Virus record (IMG/VR): IMGVR_UViG_3300011593_000002
Coordinates: 1 to 37,691 of that record
DNA length: 37,691 bases
Source: a virus
Direction: 5' to 3' (one strand)
The first letter of the stretch is position 1. Every line of letters begins with the position of its first letter. Positions 24,839 to 37,691 of the stretch are shown here, in pieces. The translations under genes were made by a program, and so were the position numbers. Under the pieces are notes generated by a model, which worked only from the letters and a program-made list of their open reading frames with translations, was not told the origin of the DNA and ran no database searches.

Positions 24839-24848
24839 TCTCATTTTT
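24821..24848. terminator. Perfectly symmetric bidirectional terminator at the convergent gene ends
   Basis: AAAAATGAGAC-gcaata-GTCTCATTTTT. It overlaps the stop codons of both 24614-24838 (+) and 24841-25749 (-). Confidence 0.7.
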
Positions 24849-25749
24849 CATAATAAATATAAGTTAATTCTTTGGCGTAGAAATTAATAAATTTACCATT
24901 TTTACTTAATTGAGGAGGCAATTGGCTAAAAATATAAACAGTAATAGGTTGCGGTTTATTATTCTTAGTTCTTCTTGCAGCAAGTTGCTTTAAAGTTTTT
25001 TCTGAAAAACGACCATTTTCAGCTTCATTAGCAATTTTATTTGTATATAACATCAAGCTTGGATTTTGATTTAATTCATCAAGCTGGACTTTTTTACTGA
25101 AAGTAAATTGAATCCCGTTGGGTTTAGGATTAATCCAAGCTGTTCCATAATATATTTTTGGTTCTTCCTCAAGATCTTCGATATTTGTAACTTCATCCAT
25201 ATTCACAAATAAATCACGAATATGAATTTCTTCATCATTATAAATTACTGAAATATCAGCATCATCATTAAAAAGTTTAACCCAACTCGACAATGCTTTT
25301 TTAGATGGTCTTACACCAAATTGGCTTTGTCCATTTGTAGTGCCTGAACTATTGGTGGTAGGGTCAGTTAAGGCAGATGCACCTTGTGTAGCTGTTTCAG
25401 TTTTTTTTGTTGAAGGCTTATCTAAATTTAAAAATGCAAATTTATCCGAAATATACCTTCTTGGTTTTGACTCTTGACGTTCCTGTAGTTCTCGTTCGAT
25501 TTTTTCTATTTTGTCTTTTTCTTTACAAGCTGGAGTATGATCACCGACATAAATGTAATAAGGTTCTTTTTTTCGTTTTGAAACTTCTTTTAATAAATTC
25601 GCACAAGTTATCTGTGCGTCACAATTCTCATCTATACATTCAAATAAATATTTAGATTTAATATTTCCCAATTCACGCTGATGATCTGCTTCCGCTGTAG
25701 TAATTATTTGGCCAGTTTCTAAAGACTTTGCTAATGTAATCGTTACCAT
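24841..25749 (-). CDS. Hypothetical protein: N-terminal Cys/His zinc-ribbon-like region, S/T-rich linker, unknown C-terminal domain
   Basis: 302 aa. FECIDENCDAQITCAN...VGDHTPAC resembles the N-terminal layout of CoiA-like Zn-ribbon proteins. Low-complexity linker (TETATQGASALTDPTTNSSGTTNGQ). Last gene of the cargo operon. Confidence 0.6.
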   Translation of the reverse strand: MVTITLAKSLETGQIITTAEADHQRELGNIKSKYLFECIDENCDAQITCANLLKEVSKRKKEPYYIYVGDHTPACKEKDKIEKIERELQERQESKPRRYISDKFAFLNLDKPSTKKTETATQGASALTDPTTNSSGTTNGQSQFGVRPSKKALSSWVKLFNDDADISVIYNDEEIHIRDLFVNMDEVTNIEDLEEEPKIYYGTAWINPKPNGIQFTFSKKVQLDELNQNPSLMLYTNKIANEAENGRFSEKTLKQLAARRTKNNKPQPITVYIFSQLPPQLSKNGKFINFYAKELTYIYYEK

Positions 25750-25794
25750 TTTACCAAATACTCAATGTAGGTTTGTTCCCAAAATTTCATAAGT

Positions 25795-26262
25795 TTATTT
25801 CACTGCCTTATAAAATTTTTGTTCATATTTTTTAGCATCTGTTGGTGTCATTTCACGATCAAGACGAAGTAAAAACAGGCCCTTTTTGTACATATATTGA
25901 TTAGTCATGGGCATCGCCAAATGTACGCTCTTAATATAATTATAACGTCTTTCCAAATCTGCCTGATTCCTAAATTTCTCAATTGTACCGCCAATGAAAT
26001 CGTCAGGATTATCACTTTCGTAATATCCATCACTTTCAAACTTTGGATCAATTAGTGGATCTGGCCACGAAACTTTTTCAATGTACTGATTAGGACGACC
26101 AAGCTGTTTATTTAAATCATTTTTTTCATTGAATGGATACAGAAAATCTAAACCTTTAATATCAAGTTTCAATGCGACTTCAAATGCACTTTGAGCAAAA
26201 CTTAAATTTGAAAAAATTGAGATGGATATCAATAAAAAAATACGAATCAAACTTTTACCCAT
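25795..26262 (-). CDS. Secreted (Sec signal peptide) hypothetical protein
   Basis: 155 aa. MGKSLIRIFLLISISIFSNLSFA|QS is a classical signal peptide with an AxA-like cleavage site and no lipobox Cys. Confidence 0.6.
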   Translation of the reverse strand: MGKSLIRIFLLISISIFSNLSFAQSAFEVALKLDIKGLDFLYPFNEKNDLNKQLGRPNQYIEKVSWPDPLIDPKFESDGYYESDNPDDFIGGTIEKFRNQADLERRYNYIKSVHLAMPMTNQYMYKKGLFLLRLDREMTPTDAKKYEQKFYKAVK

Positions 26263-26302
26263 GAAATTTAAGTCCTAAATAAATTTTCTTCAAAGTTTTA
26301 AA

Positions 26303-27211
26303 TCAATTTTCAATTGGTAATCCAATTGCTTGAATAAAATCATCCTCAGTAATAATTTTTATATCATGACCCTGTTGCTGCCATTTTTTTGCTTCTTCAA
26401 ATTTTCGACCATAGCTAACATGTGCCCAAGCTTTGTTACCTTTATTACAGATTACTAAATAATTTACAGTGGTAGTCATATCATCAATGAACTTACCGCC
26501 ATTGTTCTCAATTAGAGCTTTCCAGTCTTTTTTCTTGAAACGGCTTGAAGTACCTGTAAAACAATAAAGGGCATTTTCAATTAGTAGTTGACCTTTAAAA
26601 AAATCAGGATTATCTATTGTTTCAATTTTAGTTCTCAATGTGCCATGATCATCTGGATCAACATACCGTTTTATTTGTTTGAACAATGCTTGAATATCAA
26701 AATCTGTTAAATCATCTTGTTTAGTTCTTACAGGACGTAACGATGTATAAACTTCCTGAAAAAATACATCATCTTCTAAATAGTCATGTTCTTTCATCCA
26801 AGTATTTAAAGCCTTAGCTTCATCTATACTCAAAGTACCATCGCAAACTACTCCAGCCAATAGCCCGTGAAGCCGTTGAACATCTCTAGTATTTTTTGAA
26901 TAGAACTTTCCTGAAATAAAAATCTTAATCACTTCAACAAATTGTTTGCACTTTTCTTCATCTAATTTTTGCGAACCAATAACTGTTTGACCTAATAAGT
27001 GAATTAAATGATCAAAAGGATATTGACAATAGATTTCAGGATTTCTTTCCATCCATACCTGTAAGGCATAAATTTCTTTCTTATTGATTGTATGATCTAA
27101 AATAATGCCTTCTAAGAATCCTAAAAAATTATTTATTTCTTTATCAATTATCGCAGTCCCCATAAATCTATTTATTAGTTCTTCATCTAAATTTTCTATT
27201 TTTTTATCCAT
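26303..27211 (-). CDS. Tandem TerB-like repeats + C-terminal BRCT domain protein
   Basis: 302 aa from the ATG at 27211 (the ORF is open to 27292 but that part covers the operator palindromes). C-terminus FTGTSSRFKKKDWKALIENNGGKFIDDMTTTVNYLVICNKGN...KFEEAKKW...IKIITEDDF aligns with the remembered LigA BRCT. Two copies of an L.G...G...D..I...E..AL..WM motif are TerB/DjlA-N-like. Confidence 0.65.
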   Translation of the reverse strand: MDKKIENLDEELINRFMGTAIIDKEINNFLGFLEGIILDHTINKKEIYALQVWMERNPEIYCQYPFDHLIHLLGQTVIGSQKLDEEKCKQFVEVIKIFISGKFYSKNTRDVQRLHGLLAGVVCDGTLSIDEAKALNTWMKEHDYLEDDVFFQEVYTSLRPVRTKQDDLTDFDIQALFKQIKRYVDPDDHGTLRTKIETIDNPDFFKGQLLIENALYCFTGTSSRFKKKDWKALIENNGGKFIDDMTTTVNYLVICNKGNKAWAHVSYGRKFEEAKKWQQQGHDIKIITEDDFIQAIGLPIEN

Positions 27212-27232: not shown

Positions 27233-27268
27233 ATAGTGAATCACTATCTTGACATAGTGGCACACTAT
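27233..27268. promoter_or_regulatory. Two tandem 15-bp operator palindromes ATAGTG-N3-CACTAT (27233-27247, 27254-27268)
   Basis: Both palindromes are perfect and their centres are 21 bp apart. The second overlaps a minus-strand TTGCGG-N17-TATAGT promoter facing the cargo operon and a plus-strand TTGACA (27249-27254). CTATAGTGTGCC is shared with the repressor/early intergenic region (29595-29606). Confidence 0.6.
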
Positions 27269-27283
27269 AGGCAACATGTATTT

Positions 27284-27370
27284 ACACCGCAAAATCGGTG
27301 TACAGGCGTGGAAACCTGTTTTTGAATGTACAAGAGAGCAGAAAACATCCGCTCAAAGCGGCTTTTTTTT
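27284..27370 (+). ncRNA. Possible short transcript / attenuator with two terminator hairpins
   Basis: Three hairpins: CACCG/CGGTG (27285-27300), ACAGG/CCTGT + TTTT (27302-27323), and CCGCT/AGCGG + C + T8 (27349-27370). It contains GTACAAGAG (27328-27336), complementary to the loop at 27440-27448. The start point is inferred only. Confidence 0.3.
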
Positions 27371-27396
27371 GCCTAAAATGTCTAATCGGCTATACT
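27369..27396 (+). promoter_or_regulatory. Sigma70-like promoter TTGCCT-N16-TATACT
   Basis: -35 at 27369-27374 and -10 at 27391-27396. The predicted start near 27403 coincides with the first base of a long RNA stem. Confidence 0.45.
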
Positions 27397-27402
27397 CGTT
27401 AT

Positions 27403-27500
27403 GGCAGATCGGGCAGGGCAGCTTTTAGCTGGCCGTTTACTCTTGTACGGTATTTCCACCCCTGTTCGGTCTGCCACCATTCTGTGGAAAGAATGGCGGT
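27403..27500 (+). ncRNA. Structured leader / candidate c4-like antisense RNA
   Basis: 15-bp stem 27403-27417 with 27461-27475, including 3 G-U pairs (so strand-specific to plus). Second hairpin 27474-27499. The internal loop TTTACTCTTGT (27436-27446) is perfectly complementary to ACAAGAGTAAA (27516-27526), which covers the RBS of the next ORF. Confidence 0.5.
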
Positions 27501-27531
27501 AGGTTCAAAACTTACACAAGAGTAAATAGTC

Positions 27532-27702
27532 ATGAGAAAATCAATTCATGTGCAAGAGCACACTGCTATCTATAGCCTAGACACCTATAACCAACGTCTC
27601 CGCCAGCTCCAACGTCAAAAACGCCTAAAAATCCTGTTCGATTGCATGGGTTATTTCTGTATCTGCTTTCTTACGTTCTCCTTATTATTTTTGGGAGAGT
27701 AA
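27532..27702 (+). CDS. Small protein with a C-terminal transmembrane segment (below the ORF-track cutoff)
   Basis: 56 aa, MRKSIHVQEHTAIYSLDTYNQRLRQLQRQKRLKILFDCMGYFCICFLTFSLLFLGE. An AAGAG SD-like sequence lies 9 nt upstream. Confidence 0.4.
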   Translation: MRKSIHVQEHTAIYSLDTYNQRLRQLQRQKRLKILFDCMGYFCICFLTFSLLFLGE

Positions 27703-27704
27703 TC

Positions 27705-27785
27705 ATGCATCCAGCCATCATCGCATTTCTATTTTTTCTATTATTAAGCTCAATGTACTTACTGGTGGGAGCATGGCAGCTATGA
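27705..27785 (+). CDS. Very small hydrophobic peptide
   Basis: 26 aa, MHPAIIAFLFFLLLSSMYLLVGAWQL. It starts 2 nt after the previous stop and overlaps the Rha-family start. Confidence 0.3.
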   Translation: MHPAIIAFLFFLLLSSMYLLVGAWQL

Positions 27786-28594
27786 CCACATTCGAATTAC
27801 AACATGCAGTTTTTATCCAAAACGACCAAATCAAAACAGATAGCCTAAAAGTGGCCGAAGTCTTTGGTAAACGCCACAGCGACATTATTCGTGCAATAAA
27901 AAACATAGAATGTTCACCTGATTTCACTGAACGCAATTTTGCGCTCAGTGAATATGAGGACAAATCAGGTCGTGCTTTACCCATGTACGAAATGACCAAA
28001 GATGGTTTTGTCTTCCTGGCCATGAGCTTTACAGGTGCCAAAGCTGCCCAAGTTAAAGAAGCCTATATCAAAGCCTTTAACCACATGGCAGAAGTGCTAT
28101 ACAAACAACAAAATCAAATCCAGACCATCGATGTTGGTTCGGTGGTACGTCTACGCTCAGGAAGTCCAGATCTCACCGTAAATCATGTTTTTGATGACGT
28201 TGCAGAGGTCATTTGGTTTAGAGGAGGGCGAATTGTCCGGGAGCAATTACCTATTAGTTGTCTAACCTTAGGCGAAAGTGACCGTTTAGCTCCAACTGTC
28301 AGCTATACCCTCGATACGTTTTGGTCAAACCTATACAACTATGGTGTACACAACCTTAATCACAGCAACCGTACCGATCAAATCGCGCTTAACATTTCCC
28401 AAGTCGTCGATCTTTTCCCACAACTATTCACCAGAAATGACCTGTTGCAAAACTTGCCACATAGCAAACCACCATATCCACAATATGTCGAACACAATGT
28501 TCCCATGCAAAGTCGACTTGAAAGAAAAACTGTCCGCTGCTGGATATTTCAAGGCAATCATCCAACCATGATTGATGTAAAAGCAAAGGGGTAA
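27773..28594 (+). CDS. Rha-family phage regulatory protein with a DUF2158/YodC-like central domain
   Basis: 273 aa. ...TDSLKVAEVFGKRHSDIIRAIKN...NF..SEY.D..GR.LPMYEMTKDGF.FLAMSFTG.KA...KEAYI.AFN.M is the Phage_pRha signature. VGSVVRLRSGSPDLTV......AEVIWF is YodC-like. Confidence 0.8.
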   Translation: MAAMTTFELQHAVFIQNDQIKTDSLKVAEVFGKRHSDIIRAIKNIECSPDFTERNFALSEYEDKSGRALPMYEMTKDGFVFLAMSFTGAKAAQVKEAYIKAFNHMAEVLYKQQNQIQTIDVGSVVRLRSGSPDLTVNHVFDDVAEVIWFRGGRIVREQLPISCLTLGESDRLAPTVSYTLDTFWSNLYNYGVHNLNHSNRTDQIALNISQVVDLFPQLFTRNDLLQNLPHSKPPYPQYVEHNVPMQSRLERKTVRCWIFQGNHPTMIDVKAKG

Positions 28595-28596
28595 GT

Positions 28597-29148
28597 ATGA
28601 ACGAAAACATTATTCCCTACGTACCTATTGCAGCGCGTGTACAAGCAAGCAATCCAAACAGCCAGCTTGTCTGCCAGCAGTTTTTTAATATGGTCGATCA
28701 ATTGGTCAAAGCACAAATTACATTTAATCACGATACAACAATCGGATTTTTATCAATTTGTCCTGATCAAATTAACGATTTAATAGAACAACTTTCAAAA
28801 ACTGATCATTCAATAGATAAATTAGATATAAAAATCTTAGAGTTAGCTCTAAATGATTTAACTTATCCTAAGTATTTGGGAGTACATCAGGTTACCAGTC
28901 CAATCTGGAATAACACCTCGGTTGCAGTCTGGCAATTTCAATTAAATAGAATTGCGAGAGATAAAAACATGCAACCTTATGACAATGATTTTCTATTAGA
29001 TCAAGTATTAGCCACACTACGCATTTGGAGAAATTCACTCGAAGCCGTCGGAAACGACACTCAGGTGACTTACAACAACAATGATCTGATTTATAAACTC
29101 ATAGATCTTGAAGACAAACTTGAAAAAGTTCAGGATCAACTAGAGTAA
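28597..29148 (+). CDS. Hypothetical protein
   Basis: 183 aa. Starts 2 nt after the Rha-family stop. No recognisable motif. Confidence 0.55.
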   Translation: MNENIIPYVPIAARVQASNPNSQLVCQQFFNMVDQLVKAQITFNHDTTIGFLSICPDQINDLIEQLSKTDHSIDKLDIKILELALNDLTYPKYLGVHQVTSPIWNNTSVAVWQFQLNRIARDKNMQPYDNDFLLDQVLATLRIWRNSLEAVGNDTQVTYNNNDLIYKLIDLEDKLEKVQDQLE

Positions 29149-29157
29149 AAATTGAAT

Positions 29158-29190
29158 TAAAAAAAGCCCACGTTTATGCGTGGGCTTTTT
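29158..29190. terminator. Bidirectional terminator between convergent genes
   Basis: A-run, stem GCCCACG / CGTGGGC, T-run. Confidence 0.8.
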
Positions 29191-29202
29191 ATTTATAAGT
29201 CA

Positions 29203-29553
29203 TTATTTGGGTTCCACATCTTTTGCATACGCCTTACTTAAGCCAAGTAATGCAGCCTGTCCTTCAGGGCTTAACTGTCTATAGGCCTTTAACAACACAC
29301 TTTCTTCACTGGTTAAGCCACTAAAGTCCGGATCTATTCCAAGCAATACATAACGAATATCAACGCCTTGTTTCTGCAATCGGTTTAGATATACCCACTG
29401 GTCCGGCACATTCCCACGTACATATGCTCCCAGCGTATTTTCACTTGCTCCAATCTCACGTGACAACGTTTTAGCACGTAAATGCTTGTTATCCAGCTCA
29501 ACTTTGAAACGATGAGCAATTTCACCTGAAATTTCAGGGTCAATAGACGGCAT
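29203..29553 (-). CDS. CI/C-type prophage repressor (XRE-family HTH)
   Basis: 116 aa. LRAKTLSREIGASENTLGAYVRG is a helix-turn-helix. Divergent from the small early genes, as at the P2 C/cox switch. Confidence 0.75.
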   Translation of the reverse strand: MPSIDPEISGEIAHRFKVELDNKHLRAKTLSREIGASENTLGAYVRGNVPDQWVYLNRLQKQGVDIRYVLLGIDPDFSGLTSEESVLLKAYRQLSPEGQAALLGLSKAYAKDVEPK

Positions 29554-29594
29554 AAAAATATTTCCTTTATGTATTTAAAGAACAAAATAATGTG

Positions 29595-29621
29595 CTATAG
29601 TGTGCCTTAGCATACCACTAT
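29595..29621. promoter_or_regulatory. Early promoter/operator region of the immunity switch
   Basis: CTATAGTGTGCC (29595-29606) contains a TATAGT -10 and is identical to the 12-mer in the operator at 27259-27270 (reverse strand). The partner half-site CACTAT is at 29616-21. Confidence 0.5.
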
Positions 29622-36139: not shown

Positions 36140-37300
36140 ATGTCTGCAGGATTAGAAATTCGCGGAAAATCGATGCGCATCTGGATGCGACCGATCGCAA
36201 CTGAACCACTAATTAAAGAAACACTCGACTGGCCATTTACACCAGAAAATCAGGAACGCGCAGAGAAGCTGGCCAACCTCATTAAATTGGAGATCCAGCT
36301 CGATCAATTTCAACTGGCCAAACACTTCCCAAACTCTAAAAATATTAAAAAAAATCAAGTCAGCTACTATGCCCAGCAATATCTTGATCAAACCATAAGA
36401 GAAGTTGCACCGAGTACATATGATTCTTATCGTGGTCATGTAAACAACCATATCGTCCCTAAATTTGGGAAAATTCATCCAAAAGATATCAATACCAACA
36501 TGCTTAAAAGATGGATTGAAGATCTAAAGGAGTCGCTAAACAACAAAACAGTGCGAGAAATAATTACTCGGTTCGCGCAGATCCATGCGATCTGGAGAGA
36601 TGAAAAGCAAATGCCCTATAACCCATTTGAAAATATTGTGATTCATCAGCTTGATCCACCAGAGCCGGATCCATTTAGCAAAGTCGAAATCGCCATGATT
36701 TTAAATACTGAAACAGATCTCGATATTCAAAATCTATTGCCATGCTTATTCTGGACTGGACTTTCAATGTCAGAACAAATTCCTATCGCTTGGGAAGATA
36801 TCGATCTGGAGAACGGTACCATTCAAATATCCAGATCCTATGTCCGGGGTATTTATCGCGTCACTAAAAACCGACGTAGAAAAAGACGAATCAAGCTGCT
36901 CGAACCGGCTATTCAAGCACTTAAAAAGCAATATCAAACTACAGGTAATACAAGACCAAAAACCATTGAAGTACTGCAGCGTGACAACAAGACCAAACGT
37001 ATAGAAAAAGTCCGCTTTGTTTGGGGCAATCATGAACGCTCAAATCACTTCGAATACCACGAACTCAGGTACCGCTGGAATAAACATTTAAAAAAAGCGA
37101 AGGTACGTGGGCGTGGAATCAATCAAGGTCGGCATACCTTTGCCAGCCAGCTTTTAACCTCAGGCCAAGTTCCTCCGGAGTGGATTGCAGAGCAGCTTGG
37201 TCATAGTGATACGTCAATGATTTATAAGCATTATGGAAAGTTAATCGCAGAAGATCTGCCTGACTACATCACAAAGCTGAATAACTATATTTCGATGTAA
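36140..37300 (+). CDS. int: Tyrosine integrase with an N-terminal arm-type DNA-binding domain
   Basis: 386 aa. GLEIRGKSMRIWM is a lambda-like arm-binding N-terminus. GRHTFASQLL (box II HxxR) and LGHSDTSMIYKHYGKL (catalytic Tyr). Last gene before the right att. Confidence 0.9.
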   Translation: MSAGLEIRGKSMRIWMRPIATEPLIKETLDWPFTPENQERAEKLANLIKLEIQLDQFQLAKHFPNSKNIKKNQVSYYAQQYLDQTIREVAPSTYDSYRGHVNNHIVPKFGKIHPKDINTNMLKRWIEDLKESLNNKTVREIITRFAQIHAIWRDEKQMPYNPFENIVIHQLDPPEPDPFSKVEIAMILNTETDLDIQNLLPCLFWTGLSMSEQIPIAWEDIDLENGTIQISRSYVRGIYRVTKNRRRKRRIKLLEPAIQALKKQYQTTGNTRPKTIEVLQRDNKTKRIEKVRFVWGNHERSNHFEYHELRYRWNKHLKKAKVRGRGINQGRHTFASQLLTSGQVPPEWIAEQLGHSDTSMIYKHYGKLIAEDLPDYITKLNNYISM

Positions 37301-37615: not shown

Positions 37616-37691
37616 CGGAGCATAGCACAGCCTGGTAGTGCACCTGGTTTGGGACCAGGGGGTCGTAGGTTCGAATCCTACTGCTCCGACC
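37616..37691 (+). tRNA. tRNA-Pro (anticodon UGG); last A of CCA lies outside the window
   Basis: CGGAGCA acceptor pairs with TGCTCCG. D-arm GCACAGCCTGGTAGTGC, anticodon loop TTTGGGA, T-arm GTAGGTTCGAATCCTAC. Positions 37620-37691 are identical to 1-72. Confidence 0.92.

Follow-up and report, generated by a model that had tools for sequence, protein, structure and literature searches.

A C4-type antisense RNA cassette of the P1 immI kind precedes a Rha-family regulator gene in a P2-like prophage

Results

Layout of the locus and its host element

The window analysed here is the whole 37,691-nt stretch of the IMG/VR virus record IMGVR_UViG_3300011593_000002, and our subject is the segment at 27284-27531 together with the genes that follow it. 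The window carries P2-type morphogenetic genes (gpO scaffold, gpN capsid, gpP and gpM terminase, gpL and FII tube) with Pfam matches to PF05929, PF05125 (467.7 bits), PF06056, PF05944, PF05926 and PF04985; gpD matches PF05954 at 29.2 bits, just below the 30.1-bit cut-off. Megablast of the prophage structural half found no close DNA relative among deposited phages. The host element is a P2-like prophage (Peduoviridae) of an Acinetobacter-type bacterium and appears to be intact.

Downstream of the segment, a plus-strand operon begins with ORF56 (27532-27702), a leader ORF of 56 codons with a hydrophobic C-terminus, which matches a PHROG family of unknown function (phrog_24540, E = 4.6e-14) and has homologues at two related loci, L001 and L005. 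After a 2-nt gap follows ORF26 (27705-27785), 26 codons long, fully hydrophobic and window-specific, for which a PHROG search gave no family match; it has a Shine-Dalgarno sequence, GGGAGAG, at 27693-27699 and is putatively translated. Its stop codon overlaps the next start codon (ATGA, 27782-27785), so that ORF56, ORF26 and rha are tightly packed. The product of rha (27782-28594), 270 aa from the ATG at 27782, is a Rha-family regulator and candidate antirepressor: a first-pass annotation of this DNA had placed such a regulator here, and a PF09669 match of 106.6 bits bears this out, with further matches to TIGR02681, phrog_18886, phrog_518 and several antirepressor PHROGs. Judging from these family annotations, an antirepressor would be the output of the switch described below. 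A 183-aa ORF (28597-29148; phrog_25537, E = 1.5e-69) is the last gene of the operon. A bidirectional terminator hairpin, GCCCACG-N6-CGTGGGC flanked by an A-run and a T-run (29167-29191), separates the operon from a convergent minus-strand gene (29203-29553); the hairpin was read from the sequence and is absent from the list of a simple terminator scan. The convergent gene encodes a 116-aa protein that matches phrog_8, transcriptional regulator (E = 8e-6), gave no Pfam match and, by its position next to a divergent early promoter, is a candidate prophage repressor. On the neighbouring cargo genes, PADLOC returned weak matches only.

The segment encodes a C4 antisense RNA

The Rfam C4 antisense RNA model (RF01695) matches 27397-27481 at 69.0 bits (E = 1.5e-11) over model positions 1-87 of 87, on the plus strand only; membership is taken here as a full-length match at or above the gathering score, which is 45 bits for this family. 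Folding of the 85-nt segment gives -41.3 kcal/mol (z = -6.3), a stability reached by none of 200 shuffles, and its minimum free energy structure is the Rfam arrangement, a long closing stem (27402-27418 with 27460-27476) around two inner hairpins (27419-27431 and 27432-27451). In an alignment of 11 sequences, P1 among them, compensatory double changes are seen at 17 of the 26 consensus pairs. The covariance-model scan, the fold and the covariation, all three proposed as checks in the first-pass annotation, are thus positive, and they support the extent of the gene along with the annotated ends of P1 c4. Every sequence quoted in that annotation was found where it had been placed, and its account of the stems was right in outline. 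The closing stem has 17 bp and not 15, but it does contain exactly three G.U pairs (27409.27469, 27412.27466 and 27413.27465), meaning that it works solely as plus-strand RNA; a second hairpin at 27474-27499, whose 5′ arm is the C4 3′ tail, does exist, but has nine pairs and one A.C mismatch instead of 10 bp.

By homology to P1, mature C4 is predicted to span 27403-27478 (76 nt). The sequence is compatible with P1-type processing, with UUAU/GG at 27403 and a tRNA-like A-CCA tail at 27476-27479, and CCACC is nearly invariant in the C4 alignment of relatives. The 5′ end of the C4-family RNA of P1 is made by RNase P, according to work cited in PMC5320573. The element had been described as a structured leader; the structure stands, but the homology suggests more than a leader, namely a trans-acting RNA processed to about 76 nt.

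Two-part targets flank the RNA on both sides

The loop of inner hairpin 2 holds b′ (UUUACUCUUGUAC, 27436-27448), which is complementary to plus-strand sequences on both flanks: b2 (ACAAGAGUAAA, 27516-27526) downstream over 11 nt and b1 (GTACAAGAG, 27328-27336) upstream over 9 nt. Both complementarities had been noticed in the first pass and both are exact (27436-27446 with 27516-27526, and 27440-27448 with 27328-27336); the longer target also overlies, as claimed, the Shine-Dalgarno-like AAGAG (27518-27522) of ORF56, with 9 nt between it and the ATG at 27532. That reading caught the b words but missed a second complementarity of 7 nt. The single-stranded junction that leads into the 3′ strand of the closing stem contains, at the position of a′ CUGUCAA in P1, the word a′ (UUUCCAC, TTTCCAC in DNA; 27453-27459), which is complementary to both a1 (GTGGAAA, 27308-27314), upstream of C4, and a2 (GTGGAAA, GUGGAAA in RNA; 27484-27490). 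Both a1 and a2 lie in hairpin loops, except for the last a2 base (27490), which is paired in the stem. The hairpin that shows a2 in its loop (27477-27496, plus strand) uses the C4 3′ tail as its 5′ arm, and a2-type hairpins with other loop words are present in relatives.

On the plus strand of the whole window GTGGAAA occurs twice, as a1 and a2 only, and no other site in the window combines a and b words. Dinucleotide shuffles of the flanks yielded a downstream match of at least 11 nt in 2 of 5000 cases, an upstream match of at least 9 nt in 124 of 5000, and both b matches together in none of 5000. The footprints of b1 and b2 on b′ overlap, which makes their binding mutually exclusive. An RNAduplex run of whole C4 against the flanks was dropped, because the resulting duplexes disrupt the C4 fold, which deprives them of meaning.

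The three partners share one strand and a span of no more than 250 nt, and a′/b′ might therefore pair with either a1/b1 or a2/b2 within a single transcript, toggling the ORF56 ribosome binding site between open and closed without any diffusible C4, like the alternative-structure model for the isrK-orf45 mRNA. Genetic evidence for such cis structures exists in Gifsy-1 (PMC4825925), and the minimum free energy structure of 27284-27545 indeed pairs b1 with b′ and lacks the C4 fold, while the centroid structure forms it. However, the closing stem with its UUAU/GG 5′ site and A-CCA tail is conserved and covarying, a requirement of a processed stand-alone RNA; the P1 record annotates c4 as a separate 77-nt RNA; C4-type RNAs of A. 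baumannii accumulate well above the upstream transcript (PMC5320573); and Gifsy-1 yields an RNA species of about 80 nt (PMC4825925). We consider a switch acting in cis only to be unlikely, and cis and trans modes can coexist.

An IsrK-like unit lies upstream of C4

The a1 and b1 words belong to an IsrK-like RNA unit on the plus strand (27283-27368), supported by an isrK alignment, a terminator and the a/b complementarity. The unit consists of hairpin 1 (27284-27301), with a conserved CAAAAU loop; hairpin 2 (27302-27319), with a1 (GUGGAAA) in its loop; b1, in RNA letters GUACAAGAG, 3′ of the a1 hairpin; and an intrinsic terminator found by terminator scan (27349-27361, U-run 27363-27370). The isrK model (RF01394) aligns over its full length (1-77) at 44.9 bits (E = 2.5e-8); this is below the gathering score of 50, and the unit is therefore called IsrK-like and not an isrK member. 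On the c4-a1b1 model (RF03163), where P1 scores 51 bits, the unit reaches 20.6 bits, below the gathering score of 46.7 and through two hairpins only (model positions 14-53); the functional features of that family, a1 in the hairpin-2 loop and b1 3′ of the hairpin, are present. When the a1b1 units were compared with MAFFT and RNAalifold, the stem of the a1 hairpin proved to be kept by compensatory changes around a variable loop. This hairpin alone was recovered, since hairpin 1 and the terminator are misaligned owing to indels; the terminators of relatives were read directly from their sequences.

Candidate promoters and operators

A candidate operon promoter precedes the unit on the plus strand: TTGACA (27249-27254), a 17-nt spacer and CAACAT (27272-27277), with a predicted start near 27283. 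This site was read from the sequence; a TTGAC(A/C) or TTGCCA hexamer lies at a similar distance 5′ of the first hairpin in all eight relatives examined, and its position corresponds to that of the P1c4/P2c4 promoters of P1 and of PisrK (PMC4825925). The first-pass annotation had favoured another plus-strand site, TTGCCT-N16-TATACT (27369-27396). That site exists, with 9 of 12 matches, and would start transcription at about 27403, the predicted 5′ end of mature C4, but it carries no statistical weight, since the region holds 4 promoter-like sites where 8.8 are expected, and it is poorly conserved, with L001, the closest relative, alone sharing it, in identical form. The conserved candidate promoter lies 5′ of a1b1 and not at 27369-27396.

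Two perfect 15-bp palindromes, ATAGTG-N3-CACTAT (27233-27247 and 27254-27268, 21 bp centre to centre), bracket the -35 hexamer of the candidate promoter and are candidate operators. The hexamers CACTAT/ATAGTG occur 19 times in the window and cluster solely in the palindromes (4 sites) and at 29597-29621 (2 sites). In addition, the 12-mer GGCACACTATAG (27259-27270) has one other exact copy, in inverted orientation at 29595-29606; shared words of this length arose in 6 of 5000 shuffles in an exact shared-word test. This test and the hexamer clustering replaced a search for the 12-mer with two mismatches, which was uninformative (1.4 matches expected). The half-sites of the second cluster, ATAGTG (29597) and CACTAT (29616), which with the shared 12-mer occupy 29595-29621, overlap an early promoter-like site, TTTAAA-N16-TATAGT (29574-29601). 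It is possible that the 116-aa candidate repressor binds the palindromes; the shared operator is a prediction from this one window. The idea that the shared promoter word marks the immunity region of relatives was rejected: in L001, L002 and L005 its second copy flanks minus-strand cargo genes. If the palindromes served to repress the sole promoter in the lysogen, C4 would not be made there; a role for the site at 27369-27396 as a constitutive source of C4 is uncertain.

Targets covary with C4 among relatives

At 15 C4 loci, the a and b words differ from locus to locus and match within each, both upstream and downstream. The mean complementarity of C4 with its cognate flanks is 15.1 nt downstream and 14.7 nt upstream; non-cognate combinations reach 6.9 and 7.6 nt on average, respectively. 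On either flank, no partner outdoes the cognate one in 14 of the 15 rows. At the Acinetobacter-lineage loci and in phage 2F_1 the a words are GTGGAAA, GTAGGAA, TTGGTCG, TTGGCGT and GTGAGAA, and the a and b words vary in concert in C4 and on its two flanks. Where one would be expected, L003 and L006 showed no b1 match, and L014 no b2 match, of 6 nt or more. Among relatives, the first ORF always has its ribosome binding site overlapped by b2, and most leader ORFs run into rha through a shared ATGA.

A chance origin of structure and complementarity in an intergenic region could appeal to the weak promoter match and to nothing else. The covariance-model score and the covariation refute it, the fold z score, the shuffles and the 15-locus cognate test speak against it as well, and we give it practically no credence. 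A C4 homologue co-opted for the regulation of host or other phage mRNAs, with the adjacent complementarities as remnants, has a precedent in that host targets have been proposed for the A. baumannii C4-type sRNAs from their variable a′ regions (PMC5320573). But in this window C4 has exact cognate a/b targets on either side, 14 of 15 loci show such targets covarying with C4, the two words are combined nowhere else in the window, and the element sits inside an apparently intact P2-like prophage, directly 5′ of an antirepressor-type gene; co-option thus seems to us very improbable.

The cassette is also carried by ST64B, cdtI, two Vibrio phages and the deposited Peduoviridae phage 2F_1, and in ST64B, cdtI and the two Vibrio phages isrK and C4 sit side by side in front of Rha-type antirepressor genes. 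In the phage VHML, which has a Rha homologue, no C4 match reached the gathering score. Such a module had been thought unexpected in a P2-like phage, which proved wrong: the same cassette is found in Peduoviridae phage 2F_1 and in a Vibrio phage with a 186 B-like gene. Since the cassette is widespread and C4-type sRNAs are published in A. baumannii, its presence in a P2-like phage is not exceptional.

Discussion

With family membership, structure, both complementarities, three-way covariation and gene layout in evidence, the region is very probably a complete C4-type antisense immunity module of the P1/P7 immI kind. The first-pass reading of a P1 c4/immI-like switch therefore stands, given the full-length RF01695 match and a layout that follows the annotated P1 record element by element: candidate promoter/operator, a1 and b1, terminator-like hairpin, C4, a2 and b2 over the ribosome binding site, small ORF and ATGA-coupled regulator. 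P1 c4 scores 68.8 bits on RF01695 against 69.0 for the window C4, and the two share the three-helix fold, with b′ in the loop of the second inner hairpin and a′ in the junction. The terminator-like hairpin/T-run between b1 and c4 and the icd-ant1 ATGA overlap of P1 are both paralleled in the window, and the upstream promoter, which has an operator in P1, has the candidate palindromes in the window. The spacing is nearly the same: P1 has 3 nt between c4 and a2 and 10 nt between b2 and icd, and the window has 5 nt between the predicted C4 3′ end and a2 and 5 nt between b2 and the ATG. There are also clear differences: (i), b2 is 11 nt long instead of 8 nt, and an extra 26-codon ORF is inserted; (ii), the downstream proteins are unrelated to those of P1 (Oc4/Op51...icd, ant1/ant2), a Rha-family protein replacing Ant1/2; (iii), the phage is an integrated P2-like myovirus of Acinetobacter type whereas P1 is a plasmid prophage; (iv), the candidate repressor is a small 116-aa protein in place of C1. 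The parallel drawn earlier with icd and ant hence holds for position but not for homology: ORF56 does not align with Icd, and NF033153, which matches P1 Icd (52.6 bits), does not match it; nor is Rha similar to Ant1 (best E = 1.9).

The upstream unit likewise resembles IsrK of the Salmonella Gifsy-1 locus (IsrK/orf45/anrP), which has relatives in ST64B, cdtI and Stx phages. Both units have two hairpins and an intrinsic terminator, with conservation of the GCAAAAUC loop, and the Gifsy-1 locus shares with the window an ATGA stop-start overlap before the antirepressor gene. The window differs in having a separate, clearly coding leader ORF after C4 (ORF56, a PHROG family). In Gifsy-1 the orf45 frame presumably spans the C4-equivalent region, as we gather from published coordinates and the ST64B spacing. 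The terminator of IsrK is leaky, and the RNA acts in trans by base pairing to activate translation of the antirepressor encoded downstream (PMC4825925). The Group 1 C4-like sRNAs of A. baumannii AB5075 (PMC5320573) come from the same host genus and the same Rfam family; they were described as multicopy chromosomal RNAs with unknown targets, whereas in the window the RNA has its native phage context, and both cognate target pairs and the regulated operon can be identified.

We propose that transcription most likely starts from the conserved TTGACA (27249) promoter, bracketed by the two palindromic operator-like sites, and would pass through the IsrK-like a1b1 unit to end at its intrinsic terminator. 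Read-through would extend the transcript into C4, the a2/b2 region, ORF56, ORF26, rha and orf183. C4 would then be excised from this transcript as an RNA of about 76 nt (27403-27478) whose long closing stem and A-CCA resemble a tRNA acceptor end. By pairing of b′, in the hairpin loop, with b2 over the ORF56 Shine-Dalgarno sequence and of a′, in the junction, with a2 in its loop, C4 could block ORF56 translation. Given the tight packing of ORF56, ORF26 and rha, this loss of leader translation would silence the Rha-type antirepressor through translational coupling and/or polarity. The upstream a1/b1 is most likely a decoy that would tune or relieve C4 repression, as was shown for IsrK in Gifsy-1, and the a and b words would be the determinants of specificity (heteroimmunity).

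Other temperate phages likewise keep an antirepressor silent in the lysogen, as with 186 Tum and P22 Ant/sar. Tum is controlled transcriptionally by LexA. The sar RNA of P22 is a cis-encoded antisense RNA overlapping the ant ribosome binding site, and not a structured, processed RNA with duplicated two-part targets. The module described here is an ordinary but complete example of the known P1-type C4 switch that keeps an anti-repressor gene silent. Nothing in it is conceptually new: the C4 family, the P1 mechanism, the spread in Proteobacteria and the expression in Acinetobacter are already published.

More tentatively, the a1b1/IsrK-like RNA might be a separately terminated "anti-antisense" decoy with a promoter that the repressor keeps in check by way of the two palindromes, a proposal that we find possible though rather less than probable. 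If so, a fall in repressor would set off a burst of decoy that titrates C4, given that b1 and b2 overlap on b′, ORF56 would open and the Rha antirepressor would be switched on. Such a feed-forward RNA cascade would amount to an induction/anti-immunity circuit replacing the LexA/Tum of 186 in a P2-like Acinetobacter phage. As a corollary, Gifsy-1 "orf45" would be a C4 RNA, and activation by IsrK a relief of C4 repression.

For annotation, the segment is best labelled a C4 antisense RNA flanked by its a1b1 and a2b2 targets, with the Rha gene marked as the output under its control. The multicopy "C4-like sRNAs" of A. baumannii would gain a concrete native function. The Acinetobacter-lineage loci carry at least six a/b specificities on one conserved scaffold, a set that offers a ready panel for the study of RNA-based heteroimmunity among prophages in a genus of clinical relevance. 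In deposited phage records the cassette is often overlooked or hidden within over-long CDSs, as seen in 2F_1, in sb41 of ST64B and in orf44 of cdtI.

The C4 antisense RNA and its fold

The region 27284-27531, read in the first-pass annotation as an antisense switch similar to that of the P1 immI operon, contains a C4 antisense RNA. An Infernal scan of the window against Rfam, which that annotation had proposed, matched RF01695 at 27397-27481 (+ strand) over the full model, with 69.0 bits (E = 1.5e-11; gathering score 45 bits); authentic P1 c4 scores 68.8 bits on the same kind of scan, and C4 is the sole non-tRNA family to reach its curated threshold in the window. The closing stem pairs 27402-27418 with 27460-27476 (+ strand), includes three G.U pairs and encloses two hairpins: it lies where it had been placed but spans 17 bp, not 15, the one point on which the annotated coordinates and sequences were wrong on re-reading. 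Folding and covariation, also proposed as checks, agree with the match. The 85-nt segment adopts the RF01695 family architecture at -41.3 kcal/mol vs -22.6 +/- 3.0 for shuffles (0/200 equally stable), and in an alignment of the window, nine relatives (genomes and phages) and P1, pairing is kept despite two-sided changes in 17 of 26 consensus pairs.

Two pairs of targets

Within C4, the recognition sequence b' (27436-27448, + strand) is complementary over 11 nt to 27516-27526 and over 9 nt to 27328-27336, as first noticed. When the flanks were dinucleotide-shuffled 5000 times, a downstream match of at least 11 nt arose twice, an upstream match of at least 9 nt 124 times and both together never, so these matches are unlikely to be fortuitous; we give practically no credence to the idea that structure and complementarity arose by chance. 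A further pair had been overlooked: a' (UUUCCAC, 27453-27459, + strand), in a single-stranded junction of C4, is complementary to GUGGAAA at 27308-27314 (a1) and 27484-27490 (a2), the only two plus-strand copies in the 37.7 kb, both in hairpin loops. There are thus two target pairs, and the order along the RNA, a1-b1 ... b'-a' ... a2-b2, is that demanded by antiparallel pairing. The downstream target b2 spans the Shine-Dalgarno AAGAG (27518-27522) of ORF56, a 56-codon leader ORF starting at 27532. Because b1 and b2 would pair with overlapping stretches of b' and a1 is identical to a2 in the window, the upstream and downstream targets would have to compete for C4. We consider it highly probable that, by way of a'/a2 and b'/b2 pairing, the RNA functions as a C4-type antisense repressor of the ORF56-Rha operon; a more specific proposal, a decoy cascade through the a1b1 RNA, is somewhat less likely than not.

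The layout resembles that of P1 immI. The annotated P1 record gives the order operator Oc4 (Op51), promoters, a1, b1, c4, a2, b2, icd and ant1, with lengths of 7 nt (a1, a2), 8 nt (b1, b2) and 77 nt (c4); the c4-to-a2 gap is 3 nt and b2 lies 10 nt before icd. P1 a' and b' occupy the same structural positions as in the window, a hairpin with a T-run separates b1 from c4 just as a terminator does here, and the icd stop overlaps the ant1 start in the way that a 26-codon ORF overlaps the Rha gene (ATGA). Transferring the annotated P1 ends, we predict a mature C4 at 27403-27478 (76 nt), starting at the UUAU/GG junction and carrying A-CCA after the stem, like a tRNA acceptor end. The 5' end of P1 c4 is made by RNase P (Hartmann et al. 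1995, as cited in PMC5320573). A purely cis-acting switch seems improbable.

Target words covary among loci

Using the Rha protein as query, we fetched 23 genomic loci, the nearest being from Acinetobacter and Alkanindiges. C4 scores at or above the gathering score directly 5' of the Rha gene in every Acinetobacter/Alkanindiges locus that extends far enough upstream, and also in two distant loci. The a and b words vary among loci, yet agree inside each locus at all three places: GTGGAAA and ACAAGAG in the window, GTGGAAA and TACTAGAG in L001, GTAGGAA and TACAAAGG in L002, TTGGCGT and TACAAAAGG in L004, GTGAGAA and GATCACAG in L005, TTGGTCG and TACAAAAGGAAAA in L003/L006, GTGGAAA and CTACAAG in phage 2F_1. 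In a 15 x 15 cross-comparison, mean complementarity was 15.1 nt for cognate vs 6.9 nt for non-cognate downstream flanks and 14.7 nt vs 7.6 nt for upstream flanks, the cognate flank being top or joint top in 14/15 rows for each. Judged from their sequences, the words behave as a specificity determinant, as between P1 and P7. With this agreement inside loci, co-option of C4 for other targets appears very unlikely.

Genes predicted to be regulated

ORF56 (27532-27702, + strand) falls into a PHROG whose function is unknown; L001 and L005 have homologues of it. A different leader ORF, 43-44 aa long, is present in other relatives, and in two distant loci b2 lies at the Rha RBS or just 5' of it. ORF56 is no Icd homologue: the NCBIfam Icd model, which gives 52.6 bits on P1 Icd, does not match it. 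The 26-codon ORF (27705-27785, + strand) starts 2 nt past ORF56; it is entirely hydrophobic, has a good Shine-Dalgarno and is seen in the window only. In L001, the closest relative, the ORF56 homologue is followed directly by Rha, without this ORF. The Rha gene (start 27782, + strand) encodes a candidate antirepressor (PF09669, 106.6 bits; several antirepressor PHROGs), unrelated to P1 Ant1 on comparison. A 183-aa ORF after it closes the operon with a bidirectional terminator (29167-29191).

In five loci, four from Enterobacterales and one from a Breznakibacter MAG, an RNA matching Rfam sRNA-Xcc1 (RF02221, 58-72 bits) replaces C4 just 5' of the Rha gene (L007 1942-2026, L009 2827-2914, L010 2854-2946, L012 2840-2926, L015 2831-2935); this RNA may be an analogous or related regulator acting on genes of the same class.

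Candidate promoters and operators

In 8/8 relatives examined, the first hairpin is preceded, with comparable spacing, by a TTGACA-type -35 hexamer. In the window, the upstream promoter sequence (TTGACA 27249-27254, 17-nt spacer, CAACAT 27272-27277) is bracketed by perfect palindromes ATAGTG-N3-CACTAT (27233-27247 and 27254-27268). The window has 19 occurrences of the palindrome hexamer, roughly the chance number, and clustering is confined to this site and to 29597-29621, which lies between a 116-aa candidate repressor gene and an early promoter-like site. The two regions share an exact 12-mer, an event seen in 6/5000 shuffles. At the sequence level, these motifs lend support to the putative operator-controlled region proposed at first.

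The candidate promoter initially assigned at 27369-27396 matches at 9/12 positions, but such matches are not enriched in the region, and it is conserved in L001 only. Its predicted start is the exact predicted mature 5' end of C4. It may be the source of constitutive C4 or may be fortuitous.

The upstream unit and Gifsy-1 IsrK

The upstream segment 27283-27368 aligns over the full length of the isrK model (44.9 bits, below the cut-off of 50), and its two hairpins score 20.6 bits against the c4-a1b1 model (cut-off 46.7). The unit closes with an intrinsic terminator (27349-27361 and a run of eight T, + strand); all relatives and P1 have a terminator in the matching position. Its hairpin 27284-27301 displays a loop (27290-27295), GCAAAAUC, which is kept in many, not all, relatives and also occurs in Rfam's models of isrK and c4-a1b1; no complement of this loop was found within C4, and its partner might be a protein, Hfq or a different RNA.

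Adjacent isrK and C4 elements also precede the Rha-type genes of ST64B, cdtI and two Vibrio phages. In Salmonella Gifsy-1, the sRNA IsrK terminates at a leaky terminator and activates downstream antirepressor translation in trans by base pairing, while the "orf45" sequence, conserved in nucleotides and not in amino acids, gives a processed RNA of ~80 nt (PMC4825925). If the ST64B isrK-to-C4 spacing is applied, the conserved AUGG that starts C4 at its 5' end would fall on the first orf45 AUG (nt 107), and we therefore suspect that orf45 may be a C4 RNA, instead of or besides a coding frame, and that IsrK may act through C4 titration. The processed STnc1160 species, ~80 nt, is of the size of mature C4. 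In the deposited ST64B (L028 1040-1228) and cdtI (L029 1133-1321) records, isrK and C4 lie within over-long CDSs annotated "putative antirepressor" (sb41 and orf44, respectively); the true start of the Rha-type gene is probably downstream of C4.

Prophage context and spread

The window is a P2-type prophage with gpO, gpN, gpP, gpM, gpL, sheath and FII tube genes and a weaker match to gpD. Predicted tRNA-Pro(TGG) genes lie at each end (2-73, truncated by the window start, and 37616-37691), and an integrase is encoded at one end (36140-37300). A tRNA-Pro gene thus appears to have been the integration site, and its sequence to have been duplicated. The first-pass annotation had regarded the switch as unexpected in a P2-like phage, and our literature search found no paper linking C4 to such phages. 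The same cassette nevertheless occurs in two further P2-like contexts: the Peduoviridae phage 2F_1 (human skin), unannotated and ahead of different genes, and a Vibrio phage with a 186 B-like gene. Judged by these sequences, the combination is not rare. Because C4 and c4-a1b1 motifs are widespread in Proteobacteria and phages (PMC2864571, 2010), C4-type sRNAs of A. baumannii are abundant, expressed and processed (PMC5320573, 2016) and other P2-like contexts exist, the element is of a known kind, correctly recognized: a complete, well-preserved member of low intrinsic novelty.

The segment that separates the tail genes from the C4 operon, 24841-27211 (- strand), carries three cargo genes. Two of them encode 302-aa proteins, one of unknown function and the other with a BRCT domain (PF00533, phrog_3989), and the third encodes a 155-aa protein; PADLOC gave only a weak PDC-S48 match (E = 3e-4). 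The segment may represent an island of accessory or defence genes. The promoter region 5' of a1b1 is duplicated 0.8-1.3 kb farther upstream in L001 (1556-1572 / 2549-2565), L002 (1738-1774 / 2578-2614) and L005 (1100-1165 / 2384-2449). In all three, the copies flank minus-strand cargo genes, that of L002 being a homologue of the 155-aa ORF of the window, and the region looks like a hotspot for accessory-gene insertion or exchange.
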